DNA of 64,000 nucleotides from an uncultured Planctomycetota bacterium. GTDB taxonomy: Bacteria; Planctomycetota; Planctomycetia; Gemmatales; Gemmataceae. Positions 23,118-64,000 of the stretch are shown piece after piece; position 1 is the stretch's first letter, and each line of letters begins with the position of its first letter. The stretch is from contig CAWKHF010000005.1 of NCBI GenBank assembly GCA_963849325.1, forward strand, positions 96,001 to 160,000, written 5' to 3'. A program made the position numbers and the translations under genes. The notes below the pieces were generated by a model. The model saw nothing but the letters and a program-made list of their open reading frames with translations, was not told where the DNA came from and made no database searches.

Positions 23118-24562
<1,445 letters not shown>

Positions 24563-25546: not shown

Positions 25547-26326
25547 ATGCGCCGTACCCTGGGAGTTGGCATCGCGGTCCTGCTGCTGGCGTCGTCGGTC
25601 CGGCCCTGGCGGCCGAGACGAAACTCAAAACGACGGAGACCACCATCAAATCCGGCGATGAGGAGATCAAAGCGTTCCTCGCCGAGCCGGAGGGCAAAGG
25701 CCCGTATCCCGCCATCGTCGTCATCCAGGAGTGGTGGGGACTGACCGACTGGATCAAGGACAACGCCAAACGCCTAGCGGCGCAGGGCTACGTCACGCTG
25801 GCGCCGGACCTGTATCGCGGCAAGGTCGCCGAGGACATGAAGACGGCCAGCGAGCTGCGCAAGGGCATGCCGCACGATCGCGCCCTGCGCGACCTCAAGG
25901 CGGCGGTCGATACGCTGGCCGCCAAGGGCAACGTGGACAAGGGACGGATCGGCTCCATCGGTTGGTGCATGGGCGGCGGCTACTCGTTGCAGACTGGCGC
26001 TGCACGACCAGCGCATCAAGGCGTGTGCCATGTGCTACGGGGCCGTCGTGACCGACGCCGCCACGCTGGAGCCGTTGAACGCCACCATCCTGGGCATCTT
26101 CGGCGAGGACGACCGGGGCATCCCGCCGGCGCAGGTCCAGAAGTTCGAGGCGGCCCTCAAGCAGGCCGGCAAGAAGGTCGAGTCCATCAAGGAGTTCAAG
26201 GCCGGCCACGGCTTCATGCGCCCCGGCAACCCCGGCAGCAAGAACCCCGTCTACCGCGAAGCCGAGGCCAAGGAAGCCTGGCAGGACATCGACCGCTTCT
26301 TCGCCAAGGTGCTGCAAGGCAAGTAA
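25547..26326 (+). CDS. dienelactone hydrolase family protein; frameshifts near 25600 and 25990
   Basis: IQEWWGL, APDLYRG, nucleophile motif GWCMGG and AGHGF across frames. Confidence 0.88.
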
Positions 26327-26346
26327 GGTCGCGTCCAAGAATCAAT

Positions 26347-26417
26347 TCCGTTTAGCCGCGACGCGCAGCGGAGCGCGGGACAGACCCGCGCTCCGCTGCG
26401 CGTCGCGGCTAAACGGA
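26347..26417. repeat. REP-like palindrome family A, copy 2
   Basis: Perfect arms of about 33 bp between the two hydrolase genes. Confidence 0.9.
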
Positions 26418-26432
26418 GAACGTGTTCGTGTC

Positions 26433-27233
26433 ATGGTCGAATTCATGAGATATTTCTTTACTATTTTAATCGTTTTTCTGTCGCTCGGCTGTTCCTCATC
26501 CGCTCGCAAGGTTCGCGTGGTGGAGGGGCCTGGCGCGACAGCGGAGATGGTCTCGTACCGTTCGGGTGAGGAGAGCGTGCGCGGTTTTCTCTGTCGCCCG
26601 GAGGGCCGAGGGCCGTTTCCGGGCCTGATGCTGATCCACGACGATTTCGGACTGACCGACTGGGTGAAGGAACAGGCCAAACGCCTGTCCGATCAGGGGT
26701 ATGTCGTCCTGGCGGTCGATCTGTATCGCGGCGAGGTCGTCGCCGATCTGGAGGAGGCGCACATCATGGACCGCGGATTGCCGGAGGACCGCGTGTACCG
26801 CGACCTCAAGTCGGCGGTCGATTGCCTGGCAGCGCGGCGGGACGTGCGGGCCAAAACGCTCGGCGTCGTCGGCTGGGGCATGGGCGGCGGTTACGCCCTC
26901 GATGCGGCCATCCACGATCCGCGCCTGGGAGCGGTAGTGACGTGTTACGGCCGGCTGACAACCGATCCGCACGCGCTGGAACCTCTGAAAGCCTCGGTGT
27001 TTTGCGTCTTCGCCGGCAAGGACAAGGGCATCAGCCCCGAGACGATCGAGCAGTTCCGCGTCGCCATGAACAAGGCCGACAAACGCCTCGTCGGGATGCG
27101 CATGTACACGGCCTGTGCTCACGGCTTCCTCGACCCGGCGACATGGAAGACGCATGGGGTGCCGCCGGCCGACGACGTCAAGGATGCCTGGGGCCGGATT
27201 GACGATTATCTGGATAAGGCGCTGCATCAATAA
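26433..27233 (+). CDS. second dienelactone hydrolase family protein, possible lipoprotein
   Basis: IHDDFGL, AVDLYRG, GWGMGG, AHGF; LSLGC lipobox-like motif. Confidence 0.85.
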   Translation: MVEFMRYFFTILIVFLSLGCSSSARKVRVVEGPGATAEMVSYRSGEESVRGFLCRPEGRGPFPGLMLIHDDFGLTDWVKEQAKRLSDQGYVVLAVDLYRGEVVADLEEAHIMDRGLPEDRVYRDLKSAVDCLAARRDVRAKTLGVVGWGMGGGYALDAAIHDPRLGAVVTCYGRLTTDPHALEPLKASVFCVFAGKDKGISPETIEQFRVAMNKADKRLVGMRMYTACAHGFLDPATWKTHGVPPADDVKDAWGRIDDYLDKALHQ

Positions 27234-32244: not shown

Positions 32245-32512
32245 GCTCCGCGGCGATCTCGTCATCCCGACAGCGCGAGAAAATCCCCCTCAATGCTAGT
32301 TGTCGAGCGGGGTAGGGTCAAGCGCGCCGCCATCGCCGTCCCAATGGGGCGGTTTGGCGAAGTTCTACGGGGAGCGCTCGAAGTCCCTCCCTAACGGATC
32401 GCCACCGCTGCCGAAGGGGAGAAAAGCACCATTGTCGCGCGCGCACGCGGGCTGGTACAATCCGCCGCGAATCGCGGATCGTCCGGAATCGACCCGAGAG
32501 GAGGGAACCTCA

Positions 32513-33416
32513 ATGGAGAAAAAGTCGCGGCTGGGCCGTGGTCTGGATGCGCTCCTGAGCGGCGGCGACGATGGCGGCGTGGCGACGGCCGGGACGCAGG
32601 CGCGGGTGTCGGTCGAGGCGATCGAGCACAATCCGTATCAGCCGCGCAAGACCTTCGACGACGACGAGCTGGCGTCGCTGGGCGCCAGCATCCGCAGCCA
32701 CGGCGTCTTGCAGCCGCTGGTCGTGCGCCAGGTCGGCGAACGCTATCAGCTAGTGGCCGGCGAACGGCGTCTGCGCGGCCCGCGACGTCGGACTGACCAG
32801 CGTGCCCGTCACCGTCGTGGACTTCAACGATCAGCAGGTGCTCGAGGCCGCCCTCGTCGAGAACATTCAGCGCAGCGACCTCAACCCGATCGAGAAGGCG
32901 CAGGGCTTCAAGGAGTACCTGACGCGCTATCACATGACGCACGAGCAGTTGGCCGCTCGACTCGGTCTCGGCCGCGCCACCATCACGAACCTGGTGGCGC
33001 TGCTGGAGCTGCCCGCCGAACTGCAGGATTCGGTTCGCGTCGGCCAGCTCAGCACCGGACACGCCAAGGTCCTCAAGGGTGTCAGCGACGCGGCGCGGCA
33101 GATCGCCCTGGGCAAAGAGATCATCGCTCGCGGTCTGTCCGTACATGCCACCGAGGCGTTCGTCAAGCAGATCGCCGCCGAGGAGAGAGCGCGAAACGAG
33201 GACGACGGCACGGCCGGACCCTCCCCGGAAACGGCAGGAGGCAAGGAGGGCGCCGCCGAGAAGACGACGCACGTCCAGAGCATCGAAAACGAGCTGCGGC
33301 AGAAATTGGGCCTGCGCGTCGAGATCCGCGTCCGGGGCAAGGACAAGGGGCAGATCGTGTTGGCCTTCGAGTCTAACGACGACTTCGAGCGATTGCTCGA
33401 AGTGCTGCGCCGGTGA
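32513..33416 (+). CDS. parB: ParB/Spo0J partition protein; frameshift near 32780
   Basis: [49 protein letters not shown]. Confidence 0.92.
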
Positions 33417-34130: not shown

Positions 34131-37100
34131 TTACGAGCTGGGCTGCTGCTGCAACAGCATGAAGAACGTTTCGACGCCGAAGATCTCCGCCTCCGGGGCC
34201 AACGATCCGGCGTACTGCGAGTTGAACGCGATGTCCGACTGTACCGCGCCGGTGGGCTGCCCGGTCACCAGGTCCAGCGCCAACATGAACCCGTCGAAGA
34301 AAATCGAGTACACGGCTTGGAGCTGGCTCGGCCCCGGACCCAGCGGTATCGGCGGCGGTGTGGGCGTCGGTGTTGGCGTCGGTGTCGGTGTCGGTGTCGG
34401 TGTGGGCGTTGGAGTGGGTGTCGGCGTGGGCGTCGGCGTCGGCGTGGGCGTCGGCGTACTGGTCGTGACGGTTAGCTGCCCGTTCGCGGTCTGGGCCAGG
34501 AAGTTGTTGCTGGGGCTGTCCGAGTACGTTTCCTGGATGGTATACGTGCCCGCGGCCACGTTCGCTTGCAGGATCAACGTCGCGGAAGCCAGGCCGCTGT
34601 TCACGTTGGCCGTCACCGGGCCGCCCAACACGTTGCTGTTTTGGTCGAGCACGGTGAACGTCACGGTGCCCTCGTTGACCGTTCCCTGGCTGGAGGAGAC
34701 CGTCGCACTGACCGACACGCTCTGGGATGTCGTGCTGGTGGGGACCGGAGTGACGGGGTTGGGCGTGAGGGTGACCGCGCTGGCGCTGATGCTCAGGGTC
34801 CCGACGGCGGTCTGGTCCTGCACGCTCTTGGTGGTGGTGTCGGTGAACTTCTCCAGAATGCTATACGTCCCCAGCGGCTGGCCGGCCGGGACGGTCAGGG
34901 TGCCGGTCGCCGTGCCGTTGGACACGTTGATCGGTCCGGTGCTGGCCAACGTGTTGTTGTTGCTATCGACCAGGGTGAAGGTCACGCCGCCCTCGTTGAC
35001 GGCCTGGCCGTTGGAGTTGGTGACCTTGGCCGTGACATTCACGGTCTGGGACGACAGGCTAAAGGGAACGGCGGCGTTGCCGGCCACGATGGTGTCGGTC
35101 CCCTGGTTGACGCTCAGTGTGCCGTAGGAACGTCACATTCTGGAAGTCGCCGCTGGCATCCTTGTAGGCTTCCTGGATGGTGTAGGCGCCGGGAGCCAGC
35201 CCGGCCGGCACCGTGTAGGTGGCGCTGGCTGCGCCGTTGGCGACCGTCGAACTGGTGACGGCCTGACCGATCGGGTTGCCACTGCTGTCCACCACGGTGA
35301 AGGTGACGTTGCCCTCGTTGATGGTGCCGGCGGGGCTGCTGAGGGTGATGTTGATCGGCACCGTCTGCGCGGACGTGCTATAGGGGACGGCGGCATTTTC
35401 GGGCGGCATGGTGACGAGGCCGCCGAGGACCGTCACCGGCGTCAGGGCCGTGGCGATGGTGACGTTGCTGGGAGGACCACCCACGCCGCCGAGTCCGCCG
35501 ATGTTGTAGATGGCCTCGACGTTATAGCTGCCCGGCGGCAGGTCGTTGATCGTGGTCGGCAGGGGAATCGAGCCGGTCGCCAAGCCGCCGGACGTGATGG
35601 GGACCGTCACCAACGTGTTGGCGATCGGATTGTGCAACGCGCTGTTATCGGTCAGCAGGAACGACACCGAACGAACCGTATTGGGATCGCCGGCGAGCTG
35701 GGAGGCGACCGTGGTGCTGTCGTCGGGGTTGGTAATGACCACCGAGACCGGCTCCGTCAGCGTCGTGCCGACGACAATGGTGGGCAGCGTCGCGGGCGCG
35801 AAGGCGAACGCATAGCCGCCGGCCACCGGCTGGAGCTGGTAGGCGCCGAGGTCGTCGTTGACGGCGGGGTTGCCGCTGCCCGTGGGCCGGGGCACGCCGC
35901 GCTGGTCCTGGCTGGTGGCGTTGCTGCCCTTGCCGATGATGTAGGTGGCGTCGGTGGTGTTGGTGTTCGTCGTGGGGATGGTGTAAGTGGGGCCGCCGTA
36001 GTTGCCCGGAGCCGTGAGGTCAAAGGGGTCGCCGTTGGTCACGCCCACGTAGTCGGTGGCGGCGCCGGTGGTGATGGTGCCGGCCAGGTCGGCCGAGGTG
36101 AAGGCGTTGTTTTGCGAAATGATGGAGTCGGTCACGGTGTTGCTGCCGCCGACCAGAAAGACGCCACCGCCGGTGGTGGTCCCGTTCGCGCCAGGGAGAC
36201 CGGATTGAGCTTTGCTGCCACCGCCGGGACGGCCGCCGATTCCGCCGATTCCGCCTACGGTGTTGTTGCCGGCGACCGTGAGGTTGAGGAAGGTGTTGGT
36301 GCCGCTGACGACGTTGATGCCTCCGGCCGTACCGTTGCCGCCGTTGCCGCCGTTGCCGCCGTTGCCGTTGCCCGCGCCGGTGGATTCCGGATTGGGAAAA
36401 GTCGGGGACCAGCCGCCACCGCCGGTGGCGGTGTTCTGGGCCACCGTGGTGCTGCTGACGGTCAGGGAGGCGTCGTTGGCGACGTAGAAGCCGCCGGCGG
36501 TGGCGTTGCCGCCGTTGCCGTTGCGGCCGCCGTCGGCGTTTTTGCCCCGGGCGTTGCTGCCCCAGCCACCCAGGCCGCCGCGCGCCTGATTGCCGAAGTT
36601 GAGGGGGTCGGGGCCGATCTCGCTGGCGCGCAAGGTCATGGTGCCCGAGCCGGTCAGGAAGACGCCGCCGCCCTGGCCGTCGCCGCCGTTGCCGCCGGCG
36701 CCGACAAGGCCCGTGGTGGCGCCCGGGCCCGCGTCGCCGCCGGCGCCGCCCTGAGCGACGTTGCCGGAGACGGACACGGCGACGAGGTTCACCGTGCCGC
36801 CGTTCAACCAAATGCCGCCGCCCTCGGCCTTGCCGCCGGGGGCGCCGTTGACGTTGACGGAGGTGAAGCCGTTGCCGCCCTCGCCGCCGGTGGCCGTATT
36901 GCCCGTGACCTCCAGCAGAGGGGTATTGAGCGTATCGACGTTAAAGTTGGGGGACAGGGCCGAGCCGGGTACGGCCGGCACGAGCGGCGATTTGGGAGCG
37001 ACATTGGTGTAGACGCTGGAGCCGAACGAGGCCAGTCCGCCGCCTTCGCCGATGCCGCCGCCCGTGGACGTGAGGCCCGGTTTTTTTTTGGCATTGAAGC

Positions 37101-37770
37101 CCAGCCCGCCCGTCGCGCTGTTGTTCTCCAGCGTTACATTGTCCAAGGTGAGCGTGCCGTTGAAAGTGAAAATCCCACCGCCGGCCGCGTTGCCGCCGTT
37201 CTGGAGGGCGCCTTTGGCCGTCGGCGTGCCATTGACGCCGGTGGCGTTGTTGTTCTCGAAAAGGTCGTTGCTGAGCGTCACGTTGCCATCGTCGTTGAGC
37301 AGGCCGCCGCCCAGGGCCGAAAAGCCGGCCAGCCCCAGCCCGCCTTCGTCGCCCGCCTTGCCGCCGCGGATGTTGAGGTTCTCCAGCACCACGTTGCTGC
37401 CGGGACCCACCTGAAAGATCCGCGACAGGCCCGTCTCGTTAATGGTCGTGCCCGGTCCGCCGCTGGCCGACAACTGACCCTGGATGATGATGGTATCCGT
37501 GGGGTTATCGATGACCAGCGGAGCTGAGGACGTTGTCAGCGTGATGACATTATTGGTTGCGAACGTGATCGTGAATGTGCCGCTGCTGTCGGCATTGGCC
37601 TGCTGGATCGCGGCGCACAGCGTGCCGGCACCCGAGTCGGCCGTACTGTTGACCGTGGCGCTGTTGCCCGAGGGCGTGATACGATCTTCCAGCACCTCCA
37701 GCAGAGGACGAAAGTAACGGGTTTTCCAGGGATTGTACGACTGAGGACGGCGCCGAGATAAGGGAAGCAT
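34131..37770 (-). CDS. G0: divergent surface protein (leader, Gly-rich passenger, anchor-Q-like domain, Ig-like repeats, short PT stalk, C-terminal module); frameshift near 35130
   Basis: LEVLEDRITPS leader, GGxGG repeats, DQRG..DLGAYQ, three Ig-like repeats with NEGxVTFT..YxIxExY/F, (PT)n, then FDGF..VQSDIA..AG..EIFG. Confidence 0.85.
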
Positions 37771-38173: not shown

Positions 38174-41100
38174 TTAGTGGTTGTTGTTGCCCCCTCCACT
38201 GGAACTGCCGCCGTTGGAACTGCTGCTAGTGGAATGGTTGAGGATGTTGAGGGCCAGTTCGACGCCGAGCAGTTCGAAGAACTGCCCGAACGGTCCGGCG
38301 GCCTGCAGGTTGACGGCGATGTCGGCTTGCACCAGCGAGCCTGCCGCCGAGTTTCCGGTCAGGATGTCGAACACAACGTCAAAGCCGTCGAAGATCAGCT
38401 GCAACTCCGGATTGGCAGCTGGCATGGGCGTCGGCGTCGGCGTCGGCGTGGGAGTGGGAGTGGGCGTCGGGGTCGGAGTGGGCGTCGGCGTCGGAGTGGG
38501 TGTCGGGGTGGGCGTCGGCGTCGGAGTGGGTGTCGGGGTGGGCGTCGGCGTCGGAGTGGGCGTCGGCGTGGGAGTCGGAGTGGGCGTCGGCGTGGGCGTC
38601 GGGGTTGGGGTCGGCGTCGGAGTGGGCGTCGGCGTGGGAGTCGGAGTGGGCGTCGGCGTGGGCGTCGGGGTTGGGGTCGGCGTCGGAGTGGGCGTCGGCG
38701 TGGGAGTCGGAGTGGGCGTCGGCGTGGGCGTCGGGGTTGGGGTCGGCGTCGGAGTGGGCGTCGGCGTCGGCGTCGGTGTTGGGGTCGGAGTTGGGGTCGG
38801 CGTCGGCGTCGGAGTGGGCGTCGGCGTCGGCGTCGGTGTCGGAGTCGGTGTCGGTGTCGGAGTGGGCGTGGGACTGAATTCGGTGGCGCCGATGTCGATG
38901 ATGGCACCCTTGCCGCCGTTGATGACACGCGGGAAGCCCGTGCCACGCTGATCGAACGGACCCGTCAATGCCGTCGCCGCGTTGTCACCCGCATCGATGC
39001 CCGGACTGCCCGACTGCAACAGGATGGTCTGCGTCAGACCACCGTTGTTGCCCAGCGTGCCAATGCCCGCGGCCACGTTGGTGATGTCGCCGTGCGCCGA
39101 GCTGAAGCCGAAGCTGCCGGCGGAGTTGCCGATCAGGTTGTGGTCGCTGCTGTTGACCGAACCGAAGTAATCCGGCGACGAGGCGGCGTTGTTGAGCGCC
39201 ACCAGCGTGTTGGTGAGGATGACGTTGGCATTGGCGTTGTTGAAGACGCCGCCGCCCTGGCCGACGACGGCGCCGCCCGCCGTGCCCGGCGTGCCCGGCT
39301 TGCCGCCCACGCCCGGAGGCGCGCCGGCATCGCCGCCGTTGCCGCCGAAGCCCTGCAACGCCGAGTTGTAAGCGACGGTGACGTTGGTCAGCGTGACGCC
39401 GCCGGTGCCGGGTGTTACCAGCACGAAGACGCCGCCGCCCTTGACGGCACCGCTGTTGCCGCCGGCGCCGCCGCTGCCGGCCGTGCCTTCCGTGGCCGAG
39501 CCACCCGTGCCGCCATTGCCGCCGTTGCCCGCCGTGGCGGTGTTGTTGGACATGGTCGAGTTGGTCAGTTGCGTCTGACCCGAGCCGAACAGGTACGCAC
39601 CGGCACCCTCGGCGATGCCGCCGGCGCCGCCGGTACCGCCGGCGCCGCCGACACCACCGTTGCCGCCGTTGCCGCCGTTGCCACCGACGCCGCCGGTGAC
39701 GGAGTTACCCGACAACGTCGAGTCGAAGATCTTGCTGGGCTGGCCGGTGCCGCTGTTGGTGACGTAGACGCCGCCGCCGTAGGCCGAGCCGCCGATGCCG
39801 CCGCCGCCCGCGCCGCTGCCCAGACCGAACCCGATCGAGGCACCCGCGCCGCCGTTGCCGCCGGCGCCGGCGGTGCTGAGGTTGCCCGTGACGGACGTGT
39901 TGGTGATGCTCAACTGCAACGTGGTCCCGGCCGCCCCGAAGAAGTCCACGCCGCCGCCGAACGTGCTGCCGCCGAAGCCGCCCTTGCCGCCCAGAGCGCC
40001 GGCCGAGTTGCTGGCGCCGCCGGTGCCGCCGGCGCCGCCGACATCGATGTTACCCGTGACGGTAGACTGATCGACGGACACCTTGAGGGTGCTGGCGCCG
40101 ACACTAAAGCCGCCGATGCCGCCGCCGCCGCCCGAGGCGCCCGAGCCGCCGACGCCGCCGCCGCTGGTCGCACCGCCGCCGGTCCCACCAGCGCCACCGT
40201 TACCGCCGGCGCCGCCGGTGACCGTGTTGGTTTGCACGGTCGTGCCCGCATTGACCGCCACGTTGAGAGTGGCGCCGCCCGTGGCCAACGCTTCGATGCC
40301 GCCACCGAAGCCAAAGCCACCCGTGCCGCCGACGCCGCCGCCGGAGCCGGCGCCGCTGAGTCCATTGCCTCCCGCTCCACCAGCCCCGCCCGTCACCGTG
40401 TTGCTCGACACCGTGCTAGCATTGCCCGTCGAGGTGGACTTGCCCACCGTCACGCTGCCGCCGCCGCTGAGGAACACGCCGCCGCCCTGCGCCGTACCGC
40501 CCGTGCCGCCGCCGCCGCCCTTGGCGCCGGCCGCCGTGGCCGCGAAGCCCTGGCCGCCCAGGCCGCCCTGGGCCGAGTTGCCCGTCACCGTCACGCCGGT
40601 CAGGCTCAACTGCATGGTGGCGCCGCTGACGTACAAGCCGCCGCCCTGCGCCCACCGCCGATCTGGCCGGCGATGCTGGTCTTGTTGCCGTTGGCTCCGC
40701 TGCCGCCGATCGCCTTGTTACCCGTGATCGAGCTGGCGTCCAGCGTTATCGAGTTGGAGGCCGCGGTGATGAGGACGCCGCCGCCCTCGCCGAAGCCGGC
40801 CGCCGCCCCGCCCGCGACGCCGTTGCCGCCCAGCGCCTGGTTGTTGCTGATGACCGTGCCGTTGACAACGGTCAACTGACCGCCGGAGACGAAGACGCCG
40901 CCGCCCTCGCCGTCCTTGCCGGCGTTGCCGACCGCCTTGTTGTTCTGCACGACGGCGTTGCTCAGCGTCACGTTGCCGCCCAGGTCGAGGATGGCACCGC
41001 CCCGCGCCTCCGTGTTCGTGGTCACGCCGTTGTCGTGGGCCGTGCCGTGCTGGAGGGTCAACGACTGGAAGGTCACGTTGGTCGGGCCGGTCAGCAGGAA

Positions 41101-41551: not shown

Positions 41552-44500
41552 TTAGTGGCTGTGGCCGTTGCTGGTGCTGCTACTGCTGCTGGTGCTGCTG
41601 GTGCTGCCGGTGCTGCTGGTGTTGTGGCTGAAGAGGTTGAGGGCCAACTGGATACCGAACAGCTCGAAGAACGGTCCGAACGGTCCAGCCGCCGCCAGGT
41701 TGACAGCGATGTCGCCCTGAATGGCGATTACCGCAGCCTGGTTGCCGATCAGGAAGTTGAACGCCAAGCTGAAGCCGTCGATGACCAACTGCAACGCTGG
41801 ATTGGCCGCCGCTGTCGGAGTGGGCGTCGGCGTCGGTGTCGGAGTGGGCGTCGGCGTCGGTGTCGGAGTGGGTGTCGGCGTCGGAGTTGGAGTGGGCGTC
41901 GGCGTCGGCGTCGGCGTCGGAGTTGGAGTGGGCGTCGGTGTCGGAGTGGGCGTCGGCGTCGGAGTTGGAGTGGGCGTCGGAGTGGGAGTGGGCGTCGGCG
42001 TCGGCGTCGGAGTTGGAGTGGGCGTCGGTGTCGGAGTGGGTGTCGGTGTCGGTGTCGGAGTGGGCGTCGGAGTTGGGGTTGGAGTGGGCGTCGGCGTCGG
42101 CGTCGGCGTCGGAGTTGGAGTGGGCGTCGGTGTCGGAGTGGGCGTCGGCGTTGGAGTGGGCGTCGGTGTCGGAGTGGGCGTCGGCGTCGGAGTGGGCGTC
42201 GGAGTGGGCGTCGGAGTGGGCGTCGGTGTGGGCGTCGGCGTCGGCGTTGGAGTGGGCGTCGGCGTTGGAGTGGGCGTCGGTGTCGGAGTGGGCGTCGGAG
42301 TGGGCGTCGGAGTGGGCGTGGAGCTGAACTCGGTGGCGCCGATGTCGATGATGGCACCCTTGCCGCCATTGAGGACACGCGGGAAGCCGGTGCCACGCTG
42401 ATCGAACGGACCCGTCAATGCCGTCGCCGCATTGTCCCCGGCGTCGATGGCCGGACTGCCGGCCAGCAGCAGGATCGTCTGCGTCAGACCGCCGTTGGCC
42501 GCCAGCGTGCCGATCAGCGGAGCGACGTTGAGGATGTCGCCGTGGGCCGAGCTGAAGCCGAAGCTGCCGCTGGCGTTGCCGATCAGGTTGTGGTCGCTGC
42601 TGTTGACCGAACCGAAGTAATCGGGAGCCAAGGCGGCGTTGTTGAGCGCCACCAAGGTGTTGGTCAGGATGGTATTGGCGTTGGCGTGGTTGTAGACGCC
42701 GCCGCCCGAACCGGCCACGGCGCCGCCGGCGGTGCCCGGCGTGCCGGGGAAGCCACCGACGCCCGGAGGCGCACCGGCGCCGCCGCCGCTGCCGCCGAAA
42801 CCCTGCACCGCGGAGTTGTAGGCGACGGTGACGTTGGTCAGCGTGATGCCGCCGGTGGCGGGCGTGGCCGAGACGTAGACGCCGCCGCCGATGACGATGC
42901 CGCTGTTGCCGCCGTTGCCGCCGTTGCCGGCGGTGCCGGTGCTCGCCGCTCCGCCGGTGCCACCGCTGCCGCCGTTGCCGGCGGTGGAGGTGTTGTTGGC
43001 CACCGTCGAGTTGGTCAGCTGCGTCTGACCGGAGCCGAACGAGAAGACGCCGCCGCCATCGCCGGCGCCGCCGGTGCCGCCATTGCCGCCGTTGCCGCCG
43101 TTGCCGCCGTTGCCGCCGTTGCCCCCAGCGCCGCCGGCGCCGCCGGTGGCGGAGTTGCCCGACACCGTCGAGTCGAAGAGCTTGCTGGCGGCGCCGGTGC
43201 CACTGTTGCTGAGACCGAGGCCGCCTCCCACGGCCACGCCGCCGGTGCCGCCGGCGCCGGCATTGCCGCCGGTGACGACCCCGACCGAAGCGCCGCGCCG
43301 CCGTTGCCGCCGGCGCCGGCCGTGATGCTGTTGCCGCTGACGGTGGTGCTGGTGATGCTGAACTGCGAGGTGGTGCCGGCGATGCCGAAAAAGGCTATGC
43401 CGCCGGAGATGGCGGTGCCGCCGGTGCCGCCCAGACCACCGAGGGCGCCCACCGAGTTGCTGGCGCCGCCGGTGCCGCCGGCGCCGGCCGTGACGCTGTT
43501 GCCGCTGACGGTGGACTGATCGACGCTCAACTGGATGGTGCCGGTCGGGTTGACACTCTCGGCCCGGATGCCGCCCGATTCGGCCCCACCGCCCTTGCCG
43601 CCGACGCCGCCCACGGAGCTGGTAGTGCCGGCGCTGCCGCCGGCGCCGCCGGCGCCGCCGACGCCGCCGGTGACGGTGTTGCCCTGCACGGTCGTCCCCG
43701 CGCCGACCGCCAGTTTCAGGGTCCCTCCCGTCGCCAGACCCTCGATACCGCCGCCGAAGGCGACGCCGCCGACGCCGCCCTTGCCGCCGGCCGAGCCGGC
43801 GCCGCTCATTCCGTTGCCTCCCGCTCCGCCGGCCCCGCCGACGACGAAGTTGCCCGACACGGTGGTTCCGTTGCCGGTCGAGCCAGACTTGCCGACGGTC
43901 ACGTTTCCGGTCCCGCTGATGAAGACGCCACCGCCCTGGGCCGTGTTGCCGGTGCCGCCGCCGGCGCCGCCGGCCTTGCCGGCCGCCGTGGCCGCGAAGC
44001 CCTGTCCGGCCTGTCCGCCCTGGACCGTGTTGCCCGTCAGCGTCACGCCGGTCAGGCCCAACACGATGTTGGTGCCGCTGACCCACATACCGCCGCCGTC
44101 GGCGAAGCCGCCGGGCTGGCCGGCGATGCTCGTCTTGGTACCGTTGGCGCCGCTGCCGCCGACCGCCTTGTTGCCGGTGATCGAGCTGGCGTCCAGCGAC
44201 ACCGGATTGGTGGTGCCCGAGACGTACGCGCCGCCGCCCTCGGCGAAGCCGGCTTGCACGCTGCCCGTGATGCCGTTACCGCCCAGCGCCTGGTTGCCGC
44301 TGATGACCGCGCCGTTGAGCACGGTCAACTGTCCGCCGGAGACGAACACGCCGCCACCCTTGGCCGCCAGGCCGGCGTTGGCGACGGCTTTGTTGTTCTG
44401 CACGACGGCATTGCTCAGCGTCACGTTGCCGCCCATGTCCAGGATGGCGCCGCCCTCGGCCGTCGTGTTGATGGCCACGCCGTTGTCGTGGGCCGTGCCA

Positions 44501-44892
44501 TGCTGGATGGTCAAGGACTGGAACGTCACGTTGGTGCCCGGATCGAGCAGGAAGGCGCGGTTGTTGGCACCGGCGGCGTCGAGGACAACGTCGCCGGCCT
44601 TGCCGGTGGCGCCCTGGATGACCAGCGTGTGCGGCGTCGTCACCGTCAACTGGTTGGACAGGTTGTAGGTGCCCGCCGACAGGACGATGGTGTTGGTCGC
44701 GTCGGAGGCCGGAGCGTTGACGGCGTTGATGGCCTGCTGGAGTTGGGTGGCGTTGCTGACGTCGAAGACCGCTGGCGCCAGACGCTCTTCCAGCGATTCC
44801 AGTCGCGGCAAGACCGTGCGTCGTGCCGAGGACCGCTGGGGACGGCCCTTACTCCGTCCCGCGAACTTGCGAAGCCATTCGTTGTGAAACAT
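41552..44892 (-). CDS. G2: Gly-rich surface protein paralog; frameshift near 43295
   Basis: Start MFHNEWLRK after GGAGGAG; the two ORF halves align to the intact paralogs. Confidence 0.9.
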
Positions 44893-44947
44893 GAGACTCC
44901 TCCACCACTGAGAGAATCGGGATGGAAACACAGTGCTGCACCGAGGT

Positions 44948-45002
44948 GGCCCGCGAGCGGGTTCGCCCGCGGACCGAGGGTTACAGTAGGAGGCCGGCGA
45001 TG
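44948..45002 (-). promoter_or_regulatory. conserved hairpin element, copy between G3 and G2
   Basis: Hairpin 44948-44975 plus GAGGGTTACAGTAGGAGGCC. Confidence 0.85.
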
Positions 45003-45157
45003 TCACGCGCCGCCTTCCGCTTTCGATGATGTCCGGCCGGCGAAGGGTTCGGATAACCCGTCGCTTGTGCTCCGGACTTGTCACTAGCCCGGAGCGCCAG
45101 CGACGGGTCGAAGAATCCCATCGCTGGCGCTGGGGCTAGTGAGTTGGGAAACCGATT

Positions 45158-47692
<2,535 letters not shown>

Positions 47693-47745
47693 GGAGACCT
47701 CCACACTGAGAGAAACGGGATAGAAACACGATGTTGCGTCAAGGT

Positions 47746-47950: not shown

Positions 47951-51121
<3,171 letters not shown>

Positions 51122-51231: not shown

Positions 51232-54474
<3,243 letters not shown>

Positions 54475-54584: not shown

Positions 54585-57650
<3,066 letters not shown>

Positions 57651-57750: not shown

Positions 57751-60953
<3,203 letters not shown>

Positions 60954-61293
60954 GAGACTCCTCCACATCCGAGGGAAACGAAAGGAGACCAGGGGGTCCG
61001 TCCCGCGCGAACGGGGAGACACTCCCCGCGCCGCCGTCAGGGCCGCAACCAGCTCTGTCAGCCCCACTTCTCCACCTCCCCATAAAGGGGAGAAGGGAGA
61101 GCGGATACATCCGTGTGGAGGAGGACGGAATCGAGCCGCTCCGTCCGGAGAACATCCTGTTCACTTCTCGATGTCGAAATGCACGCCGTTCCGAGGAACT
61201 CACGGACGGCGCCCGTTTCCTTCCTTCCTTGCCAGGAACGGAGAATGAACCGGGTGCCTGCCCCGCATCCTGCTCGGGCGGCGCGGAGATCCG

Positions 61294-61349: not shown

Positions 61350-64000
61350 TTAGTGGGTGCCGTTGCCAACACCGACGTTGCTTCCGCCCCCGCCGGAACT
61401 GGTGCTCCCGCCGCTCGTGCTGGTGTTGTGCGCGAAGGCGTTGATGGCCAGTTCGATGCCGAACAGCTCGAAGAACGGTCCGAACGGTCCGGCCGCCGGT
61501 AGGTTGACGGCGATGTCGGCCTGCACGCCGGCCGCCCCGGTCTGATTGCCGGTCAGCAGGTCGAGCACGAGGCTGAAACCGTCGAAGACCAACTGCAACG
61601 CCGGATTGGCCGCCACCGTCGGAGTGGGCGTCGGTGTCGGTGTCGGCGTTGGAGTGGGCGTTGGAGTGGGCGTCGGCGTCGGCGTTGGAGTCGGCGTGGG
61701 CGTTGGGGTTGGCGTCGGCGTCGGTGTTGGGGTCGGCGTCGGCGTCGGAGTGGGCGTCGGTGTTGGAGTTGGAGTTGGAGTCGGCGTCGGTGTCGGCGTC
61801 GGCGTCGGCGTTGGGGTCGGCGTCGGCGTCGGTGTTGGGGTCGGCGTCGGCGTTGGGGTCGGCGTCGGCGTTGGGGTCGGCGTCGGAGTGGGCGTCGGTG
61901 TTGGAGTTGGGGTCGGCGTCGGCGTCGGTGTTGGGGTCGGCGTCGGTGTTGGAGTCGGTGTCGGAGTGGGCGTGGGCGTGGGCGTGGGCGTGGGCGTTGG
62001 AGTGGGACTGAACTCGGTGGCGCCGATGTCGATGGTGGCACTCTTGCCGCCGTTGATGACTCGCGGGAAGCCGGTGCCACGCTGATCGAACGGACCCGTC
62101 AGGGCCGTCGCCGCGTTGTCACCCGCATCGATGCCAGGGCTGCCGGACAGGAGCAGGATGGTCTGTGTCAGACCACCGTTGTTGCCCAGCGTGCCAATGC
62201 CCGCGGCCACGTTGAGGATATCGCCGTGGGCCGTGCTGAAGCCGAAGCTGCCGGTGGCATTGCCGATCAGGTCGTGGTCGCTGCTGTTGACCGAACCGAA
62301 GTAATCGGCGGCAGAGGCCGCGTTGTTCAGCGCCACCAGCGTGTTGGTGAGGATGACGTTGGCGTTGGCATTGTTGAAGACGCCGCCGCCCTGGCCGGCC
62401 ACGGCCCCGCCGGCGGTGCCCGGCGTGCCCGGTGTGCCACCCACTCCCGGAGGCGCGCCGGCGTCGCCGCCGTTGCCGCCGAAGCCTTGGAGCGCCGCGT
62501 TGTAAGCGACGGTGACGTTGGTCAAGGTGACACCGCCGGTTCCGGGCGTGACCAGCACGAAGAGGCCGCCGCCCTTGACGGCGCCGCTGTTGCCGCCGTT
62601 GCCGCCGTTGCCGGCGGTGCTGGCGGTGGCCGAGCCACCCGTGCCGCCGTTGCCGCCGTTGCCGGCGGTGGCCGTGTTGGTGGACACGGTCGAGTTGGTC
62701 AGTTGCGTCTGACCCGAGCCGAACAGGAACGTGCCGGCACCCTCGGCGGAGCCGCCGATGCCGCCGCCGCCGCCCTTGCCACCGGCCTTGCCGTTGCCGC
62801 CGTTGCCGCCCGTGCCGCCGGCCCCGCCGGTGACGGAGTTGCCCGACAACGTCGAATCGAAGATCTTACTCGCCTGGCCGGTGCCGCTGTTGGTGACGAA
62901 GACGCCGCCGCCGTGGGCAAAGCCGCCCGCGCCGCCGACGCTACCGCCGCTGCCCAGGCCGGCCGCGGCCGTGGCCCCCGCACCGCCGTTGCCGCCGGCG
63001 CCGCCGGTGACGCTGTTGCCCGTGACGGACGTGTTCGTGATGGCGAACGACGAAGGCGTGCCGCCGACCGGGAAATAGTCGATGCCGCCGGCGAAGGTGT
63101 CGCCGCCGTCGCCGCCGGTGCCGCCCAGAGCGCCGGCCGTGTTGCTGGCGCCGCCGACGCCGCCGGCACCGCCGACGACCATGTTGCCCTGGACGGTAGA
63201 ACTGCCGAGCGTGAACTTTACCGTGCCGAAACCGTTGATGGCGATGCCGCCGGTGTCGCCCGTGCCGCCGGTGCCGCCGCCGCCGCCCGTGGTAATCAGC
63301 GTGCCGCCGGTGCCGCCAGCACCGCCGGCGCCGCCGGCGCCGCCCGTGGCCGAGTTCGTGTCCACCTGGGTGCCGGAGGTCACGTTGACGGTGAGCGTGT
63401 CTCCGCCTTTGGCCAAGGCATTGATGCCGGCGCCGAGCACGCCGCCGCCGTGGCCGCCGCTGCCGCCCGTCGAGCCGCCGCCACTCAGTCCGTTGCCTCC
63501 CGCTCCGCCGGCCCCGCCGATGACGAAGTTGCTCGACACCACGGTGGCGTTGCTGGTCGAGGTGGACGTGCCGACGGTCACGGTGCCGCCGCCGGTAATG
63601 AACACGCCACCGCCATGTGCCGAACCGCCGGTGCCGCCGCCGCCGCCGGACTTGCCGGCCGCCGTCGCCGCGAAGCCCTGTCCGGCCAGGCCGCCCTGGG
63701 CCGTGTTCCCTGTCAGCGTCACGCCGGTCAGGCTCAGCGACATGGTGGCGCTGCTGATCCACAGACCGCCGCCGTTGGCCGTCCCGCCGGCCTGACCCGT
63801 CGTACTGGTCTTGGTGCCGTTGGCGCCATTGCCGCCGATGGCCTTGTTGCCGGTAATCGAGCTGGCGTCCAGGGTCTGCGGATTGCTGGTGCCGACGATG
63901 AAGACGCCGCCGCCCTCGGCACTGCCGGCCAGCGCCCCGCCGGAGACACCGTTGCCGCCGACAGCCTGGTTGTTGCTAATGACCGTGCCGTTGACGACGG
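61350..64000 (-). CDS. G8: Gly-rich surface protein paralog, 5' end outside the window
   Basis: Frame is open to the window edge ([17 protein letters not shown]..); same anchor-Q-like domain, PT stalk and C-terminal module. Confidence 0.92.

Follow-up and report, generated by a model that had tools for sequence, protein, structure and literature searches.

The locus described here raises a question that can be put simply: why do eight proteins encoded in one array of a planctomycete genome end in the same short domain, and what might that domain do? The window, by which we mean the whole stretch of DNA analysed, is 64,000 nt long with 67% G+C, derives from an uncultured member of the Gemmataceae and maps to G000:C5:96001-160000, where G000 is its genome and C5 the contig. 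Nine paralogous genes, G0 to G8, lie on its minus strand, beginning near 34.1 kb and continuing up to the window end, and the C-terminal module in question has a core of 62 residues. Our analysis identifies this module as a real domain family, new to Pfam and NCBIfam, that belongs to a known kind, the C-terminal targeting or anchoring modules of surface proteins. As to its function, we favour non-covalent docking or anchoring, at a probability of roughly 0.4 given what sequence and structure prediction provide.

At the end of G1, the stretch 38174-38420 (-) consists of the stop codon, a tail of 17 Ser, Gly and Asn residues and the 62-residue core (38228-38413). A six-frame motif scan of the window placed seven copies of the module at the ends of G1, G2 and G4-G8 and none elsewhere, and a divergent eighth copy ends G0 (34134-34331), behind MG2/Ig-like repeats and a 36-residue Pro-Thr (PT) run. 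Measured against the G1 copy, identity is 58-66% for the other six paralogs and 35% for G0, with ten columns invariant across all eight (D9, G10, Q29, D31, I32, N35, A39, G40, E47 and G50). A preliminary description of this DNA, made from its letters, had proposed exactly such a shared ending of eight proteins, a distant version in G0, and a Ser/Gly tail often finishing in His; scan and alignment bear out the first two, and His is the last tail residue in four of the seven copies.

The intact paralogs are built, in order, from an N-terminus with leader, a Gly-rich beta-helix, a choice-of-anchor Q domain, a PT run of 94-168 residues and the module. Their N-termini are Arg-rich and carry a 14-residue leader motif without a hydrophobic signal peptide. 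The choice-of-anchor Q model (NF041518), which has 22 matches in the whole genome, scores above its curated cut-off just before the linker in G5 (E 1.5e-14) and G3 (E 7.4e-14). The parts of the array are as follows:

34131..35087 (-): G0, C-terminal part, with MG2/Ig-like repeats, PT linker 34350-34457 (36 aa) and module 34134-34331
35059..37770 (-): G0, N-terminal part, with leader, beta-helix and weak choice-of-anchor Q match; frameshift-separated
38174..40636 (-): G1, C-terminal part, with beta-helix, choice-of-anchor Q core (38885-38953), PT linker and module
38177..38227 (-): G1 Ser/Gly/Asn tail, His last
38228..38413 (-): G1 module core, 62 aa
38429..38872 (-): G1 PT linker, 148 aa
40606..41442 (-): G1, N-terminal part, with leader (14 residues) and beta-helix; frameshift-separated
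41552..44086 (-): G2, C-terminal part, with core 41618-41803 and PT linker 41816-42319
43015..45084 (-): G2, N-terminal part with leader; frameshift
45158..47704 (-): G3, with leader, beta-helix, choice-of-anchor Q and Gly-His/Asp-His repeat end; no PT linker, no module
47951..51121 (-): G4, intact, with core 48002-48187 and PT linker 48197-48562
51232..54474 (-): G5, intact, with core 51271-51456, PT linker 51466-51897 and choice-of-anchor Q at residues 794-858
54585..57650 (-): G6, intact, with core 54597-54782 and PT linker 54792-55073
57751..59097 (-): G7, C-terminal part, with core 57763-57948 and PT linker 57955-58374
59070..61067 (-): G7, N-terminal part with leader; frameshift
61350..64000 (-): G8, continuing past the window end, with core 61422-61607 and PT linker 61617-62006

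The evidence that this ending is a domain in its own right comes from beyond the array. A profile broadened with divergent copies from congeners was run against 1.84 billion cluster representatives and returned 98 clusters at E<=1e-3, 44 of them at E<=1e-10. The module lies at most 5 residues from the C-terminus in 73 of these clusters, 6-15 residues in 21 and 16-30 residues in 4, so that all 98 carry it within 30 residues of the end. Significant matches in 98 clusters, all of them C-terminal, place the resemblance of the copies far above chance. A word-indexed homolog search with the eight-copy profile, restricted to longer proteins, found no match, which we attribute to the sensitivity limit of that search because the exhaustive one gave 98 clusters.

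The module is also not tied to one type of protein. Its genome has 11 intact copies, besides a truncated one, and the intact ones sit on at least five unrelated passengers. Those in the window are the choice-of-anchor Q beta-helix and the MG2/Ig repeats; the three intact copies outside it end a protein of Ig-like repeats with weak LapB-repeat and tandem-95 matches (L009), a repeat protein of unclassified type that matches no family (L010) and a protein of HAF repeats (L011; TIGR02913, E 4e-71). Among the relatives the passenger domains include Big_1, Big_3_5, Big_13, MG2, He_PIG, TIG, MBG_2, DUF11 and Beta_helix/NosD, together with enzyme domains, a multicopper oxidase and a GH5 cellulase. Choice-of-anchor Q is present in five of seven full-length members tested, and the module occupies the slot behind choice-of-anchor Q and Z domains. 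NCBI chose the name 'choice-of-anchor' for the varied anchors that come after those domains. A tail peculiar to the paralogs is ruled out by the copies on unrelated passengers, in this genome and elsewhere.

Low-complexity linkers usually precede the module: Pro, Thr, Ser and Gly make up at least 50% of the 20 residues upstream in 51 of 79 cases, compared with 24% of 695 20-mers taken as background. A stand-alone form exists as well. In 21 of the 53 clusters that bear the leader, the module follows it after at most 23 residues, giving proteins of about 100-200 aa, and such leader-plus-module proteins indicate that the module is also a product in its own right. Stand-alone genes of this type in genomes G508 (L086:7055-10303) and G507 (L087:5990-11372) share a neighbourhood, lying between an HlyIII-family gene and a penicillin amidase gene.

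The family is uncatalogued. Neither Pfam nor NCBIfam has a match on the module in the window proteins or in any of the 98 relatives. Among PDB sequences the best profile match had E 0.89, and Foldseek against PDB folds returned nothing at E<=0.001 with either the short or the long model. The best match of the wide VIA-align search (Z 5.6) lies inside the tool's stated noise for helical models, the ESM Atlas yielded no usable match, and literature searches found no description of the module. Ten relatives looked up by exact sequence proved to be in clusters of one to four members, named at most 'hypothetical protein'. The preliminary description had named two findings that would count against it, a match to a known Pfam or NCBIfam domain and confinement to these paralogs; the first was not found in either database, and the passengers speak against the second. 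It had asked whether the module is always C-terminal, follows low-complexity linkers and occurs with an LExLExR leader (below); among the relatives the position is constant, the linkers are usual and the leader is present in 53 of 98 clusters, and the passengers are different, as it had supposed. As a whole, its interpretation is partly supported, the exceptions being the number of helices and a partner enzyme or scaffold, to which we return, and a role in anchoring, oligomerising or sorting, which stays a hypothesis.

The distribution is narrow. Searching species-representative genomes with a 37-row profile (A4), we found the module in 6 of 11 genomes of its own genus, in none of 256 from the rest of the order and in none of 400 drawn evenly from the phylum; the sets searched are samples and contain many incomplete genomes. 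Earlier, narrower profiles gave the same picture. Marginal matches in G578 and G660 are false, being located in N-terminal, hydrophobic, apparently membrane-spanning regions, and a lone locus on a Myxococcota metagenome-assembled contig was judged spurious, its frame running antisense to an 802-aa coiled-coil gene. Among the 267 order and 400 phylum genomes searched, the family thus appears confined to part of one uncultured genus.

Its sequence signature runs PS(L/F)FQA..L(Y/F).DG ... VQA(D/S)I..NLPYAGPF(G/A) ... LAGE.A..QA(V/L)Q. In a logo of 141 distinct rows the domain start is marked by P1 (0.97), S (0.81), F, Q (0.73), A6 (0.87), L10 (0.89), D13 (0.99) and G14 (0.88), and the later part by A (0.74), x, I (0.87), xx, N (0.75), x, P, Y, A (0.89), G (0.83), P (0.80), F (0.73) and, further on, G (0.96). 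The preliminary description had pictured three helices; the module is indeed predicted to be helical, but DSSP assigns two helices, 2-19 and 22-59, to the AlphaFold2 model of the short form (62 residues of G5; 21-row alignment, predicted local distance difference test score (pLDDT) 94.2, predicted template modelling score 0.78). Long variants carry an insertion of about 45 residues between the two helices, so that the family comprises a short form of about 60 aa with two helices and a long form of about 110 aa with four. In the long stand-alone protein P0006 (167 aa; 24-row alignment) the module helices span 58-81, 92-104, 109-123 and 127-160 with pLDDT 92-98, while the leader region has pLDDT 51-64 and does not pack on the module. 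The models are consistent with an autonomous all-alpha fold. A Ser followed three residues on by Gln is the rule of the helix N-capping box, and in the module the first helix begins directly after the conserved Ser, with Gln three residues past it; read as a capping box, the conserved start is accounted for without a cleavage site.

Composition tells against several familiar identities. The module is acidic (median net charge -6 over 119 modules). The highest Kyte-Doolittle value over 19 residues has a median of 1.22; it is 1.6 or more in 8 of 119 modules and stays below 1.9 in all of them, and no basic cluster occurs in the last 12 residues of any of the 119. A membrane anchor is ruled out on these counts, and with neither a membrane-spanning segment nor a basic tail the module is not a classical sorting signal, just as the preliminary description had held. 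That description also considered it too short for an autotransporter barrel, an identity that its 62 residues and helical character rule out.

The carriers are probably exported surface proteins, to judge from their N-termini. They lack a classical hydrophobic N-terminal signal and bear a planctomycete-type leader instead: LxLExLExRxxP is found in 53 of the 98 clusters, or in 49 of 67 when only those beginning with Met and at least 90 aa long are counted, and many of the clusters without it look N-terminally truncated. The leaders of G1 and G3-G7 fit this Gemmataceae form of the motif. According to the available part of a study of Tuwongella immobilis (PMC8567305), LxLExLExRxxP occurs there on 52 genes for candidate cell-surface proteins, of whose products 20 were detected, 8 of them solely in the sodium dodecyl sulfate-soluble envelope fraction. 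It is because the leader is the Gemmataceae form of a planctomycete cell-surface motif that export of the carriers seems probable.

These features enabled us to propose a model for the module. In this model, the module has spread by domain shuffling and become attached, by way of Pro/Thr-, Pro- or Gly-rich linkers, to a large number of unrelated exported proteins. Once exported, it would bind a partner protein or an envelope component common to the carriers, and each passenger would thereby be kept at or close to the cell surface, extended on a long stalk. The analysis establishes that the domain exists and what its position, passengers, predicted fold, composition and narrow distribution are; export is inferred from the leader, and binding and surface retention belong to the proposal. 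The docking reading is preferred because we are dealing with a folded, acidic domain of variable length that also occurs in stand-alone forms, has a narrow distribution and has no enzyme nearby. For a family restricted to part of one genus, and not found in the 256 and 400 further genomes, a binding domain is moreover a simpler proposition than a new processing machine.

Several points weigh against this reading. The gene neighbourhoods inspected show no conserved receptor, partner enzyme or scaffold tied to the module, so that the partner anticipated in the preliminary description did not appear, and the recurrent neighbour that was seen, a TPR-sulfotransferase gene described below, follows the beta-helix passenger family and not the module. 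No recognisable binding motif is seen in the sequence of the module, which is acidic. The leader is the one feature that points to export, and it does not match Planc_extracel (PF07595; 0 of 6 N-termini, Pfam, E<=10) or LEPR-XLL (NF012209; 0 of 5 N-terminal pieces, nor full-length L011, NCBIfam, E<=1). The structural models derive from shallow alignments (21 and 24 sequences), and high confidence is common for short helices. Finally, some genuine sorting signals likewise occur in small proteins made up of leader and signal, so the stand-alone forms are not decisive for docking.

The alternative that survives best, which we nonetheless regard as unlikely, is a folded export or sorting signal working by the logic of the C-terminal domain (CTD) of the type IX secretion system (T9SS), in which a lineage-specific machine would recognise and perhaps remove the domain and would carry the protein across the outer membrane or attach it there. 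The available part of Haft's account (10.1101/2023.06.07.544157) lists seven attributes of tripartite C-terminal sorting signals. Measured against that list, the module shares the C-terminal position, the number of copies per genome (11 and one truncated), a signature of near-invariant residues at its start and the dissimilar, unrelated passengers; in place of the N-terminal signal its carriers have an export leader of another kind, and the transmembrane segment and basic tail are missing (10.1101/2023.06.07.544157). The slot behind the choice-of-anchor Q and Z domains also speaks for a signal. Against it stand, besides the rarity of transmembrane-like segments (8/119) and the lack of a basic tail (0/119), a length that varies from 60 to 110 aa by internal insertion, which would be unusual for a recognition signal, and extreme C-terminal tails that are variable. 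Helix capping accounts for the conserved start, the neighbourhoods inspected hold no candidate for a processing enzyme, and a new machine limited to part of one genus would be unparsimonious. The genome, furthermore, already has PEP-CTERM proteins (8 matches, for example C12:748629-749672) and two exosortase loci, one of them broken into four frame pieces:

G000:C7:414706-415440: exosortase locus
G000:C5:538698-539447: exosortase locus

Part of the remaining alternatives involves a second helical module, B (AGFFGLxIEEFE...), which ends two other choice-of-anchor Q proteins of the genome behind PT linkers. Its signature is AGFxGLAIEEFELTLD...LDATIAQLQ.AI.NDPL.PT.EGQLA..LG.S.A..ALSG, and it has at least 25 relatives, all 'hypothetical', that share with carriers of the first module (A) the C-terminal position and the leader; they have Gly/Ser linkers and occupy the slot behind choice-of-anchor Q or Ig domains. 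Module B likewise has no Pfam or NCBIfam match, and was found in 7 of the 267 order genomes, all of the same genus; G501, G502, G503 and G505, also of that genus, have neither A nor B. The sites of module B are:

G000:C5:451819-452034 (L050): module B
G000:C5:596530-596736 (L043): module B
L085:6135-6356: module B

Hidden Markov model searches do not link A to B. A profile-profile comparison aligns them over the full 62 columns with a probability of 87.8% (E 3.3e-6; 75.7% with three B sequences), and from this match in sequence the two modules are probably homologous. Across the genus, homologs of the choice-of-anchor Q passenger end in yet other small modules, also in genomes without A. These fall into at least three recurrent ends, types C to E: PPTLHTPxLLALFDELLHGIE...LLVSTYDGxGNLxSVTLFG; an Ig domain with a short ..ILVDFIFxLLA.. 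helix; and a beta-type ..ITYTPEIVQGL. Homologs with other ends indicate that this lineage fills the choice-of-anchor Q slot with end-modules from a changing set. The loci are:

Type C: L107, L116, L133, L118, L109, L119, L126
Type D: L117, L110, L120, L130, L045
Type E: L113, L114, L061

A doubtful alternative, slightly behind the sorting signal in our estimation, is a self-assembly or pairing domain, in which modules would bind each other, the stand-alone proteins or module B and so produce oligomerised passengers or mixed surface assemblies. In the models the 18-residue helix of the short form faces a 38-residue helix and may expose a hydrophobic surface, which the long form would fill with two further helices, a reading made without coordinates. 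Stand-alone modules are common (21/53), A and B are present in the same six genomes, and A-bearing and B-bearing genes are adjacent on G506:C24 and G509:C8. However, A and B (B by inspection) are both acidic, which disfavours pairing, their co-occurrence within one subclade is confounded by descent, and there are two adjacent pairs only, among about 20 A copies and 25 B matches. A two-copy complex prediction on alignment A4, run without controls, scored 0.01 against a mark of 0.42, which decides neither for nor against pairing.

A more ambitious idea, which we think improbable, extends pairing to the whole set: A, B and types C to E would form a combinatorial docking code, pairing with each other or with stand-alone adaptors and assembling GH5 cellulase, multicopper oxidase and adhesin-like beta-helix and Ig proteins on long glycosylated PT stalks into a cellulosome-like surface system invented within the lineage. 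It is very hard to credit the last alternative, that of a secreted hydrophobic helical peptide, for instance bacteriocin-like or membrane-active, sometimes fused to a carrier, for although leader-plus-module proteins of 100-200 aa are common and the window copies are quite hydrophobic (Kyte-Doolittle maxima 1.1-1.55), the conserved part is C-terminal and the N-terminal parts vary, the reverse of polymorphic toxins, no immunity-like neighbour recurs in the neighbourhoods inspected, enzymes and adhesin-like repeats on long stalks make up the passengers, and the net charge is strongly negative.

The recurrent neighbour mentioned above is a fusion gene of TPR and sulfotransferase (Sulfotransfer_3) domains that lies directly upstream of beta-helix/PT/module genes:

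G000:C5:160706-165676 (L097:706-5676): TPR-Sulfotransfer_3 gene, just past the window end
L082, L084, L089, L090: TPR-Sulfotransfer_3 neighbours in G509 (twice), G507 and G504; in L082 the TPR part only was detected

All the genes linked to it share one passenger family, which ties it to the passenger or its PT stalk and not to the module; G504 has a TPR-GT41 glycosyltransferase gene as well. It may be that these neighbours modify the PT stalk or its glycans. Type I secretion signals are C-terminal as well, but go without an N-terminal export signal and with dedicated ABC/MFP/TolC genes close by. The carriers here have a conserved N-terminal leader, and an ABC-2-type transporter, 30 kb away, was the only transporter noted in the window, no search having been aimed at type I secretion genes.

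Within the array, G3 ends in a 32-residue Gly-His/Asp-His repeat in place of PT linker and module, and this end may be a metal-binding tail or the product of a deletion. Four of the genes contain one frameshift each: G0 (35059-35132), G1 (40606-40717), G2 (43015-44086) and G7 (59070-59097). Housekeeping genes of the window, for a DUF1501 protein, a dienelactone hydrolase and ParB (23118-24562, 25837-27233 and 32300-33416), are frameshifted too, and as these are also split we suspect indel errors of the assembly rather than decay into pseudogenes. Long open frames on the plus strand at 34000-64000, up to 1107 aa and rich in Arg, Gly and Ala, run antisense to the array; we rejected them as genes, considering them a mechanical outcome of high G+C and repeat content. 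The remainder of the window consists of housekeeping genes, among them PSD1/PSCyt2 and DUF1501 genes, both typical of planctomycetes. A second cluster of genes for PT-linked surface proteins lies on contig C1 (G000:C1:493800-510200), where L009 and L010 carry the module; the other genes there either have PT runs broken by PHA(R/K)HPGS and end without the module, or are frameshifted within the repeat.

This family offers a handle on how planctomycetes retain proteins at their unusual surface, and on the machinery behind a leader so unlike a Sec signal. The module is small, portable and well defined, and is joined in nature to ten or more kinds of passenger, among them enzymes. If the docking reading is true, it would represent a new attachment principle and a ready-made surface-display tag for these bacteria; if the module is a sorting signal, it would point to an undiscovered machine. 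In either case a Pfam or NCBIfam model would annotate the ends of about a hundred clusters of 'hypothetical' proteins.

Set beside the known C-terminal systems, the module stands apart from LPXTG, PEP-CTERM, GlyGly-CTERM and MYXO-CTERM signals in being acidic, predicted to fold and longer by a factor of two to five, with no transmembrane helix and no cluster of Arg or Lys. Like the T9SS CTD (Por_Secre_tail, TIGR04183), it is a small domain, predicted to fold, with which many unrelated secreted or surface proteins end, often behind a linker and in many copies per genome. The T9SS CTD, however, is a beta-sandwich, whereas our module is predicted to be all-alpha; AlphaFold2 models helices only, and TIGR04183 matches neither five window proteins nor anything in the genome, which together rule out that identity. 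Identity with SLH or dockerin repeats, which the preliminary description had also doubted, is ruled out by the lack of a Pfam match on the module. Nevertheless, the cellulosomal dockerin is the model for non-covalent docking, and the likeness extends to a non-catalytic C-terminal module of about 60-70 aa that follows Pro/Thr-rich linkers on enzymes and non-enzymes alike. The present module differs in having no Pfam dockerin match (5 + 98 proteins) and no visible duplicated calcium-binding loop-helix motif; no cohesin-like partner turned up, although no search was aimed at one. A last comparison is with the SHOCT domain, which, in the available part of its description, is widespread in bacteria, unlike our module, confined as it is to one genus-level clade and without a Pfam match; the two have in common that they are short, mostly C-terminal and found together with many other domains.

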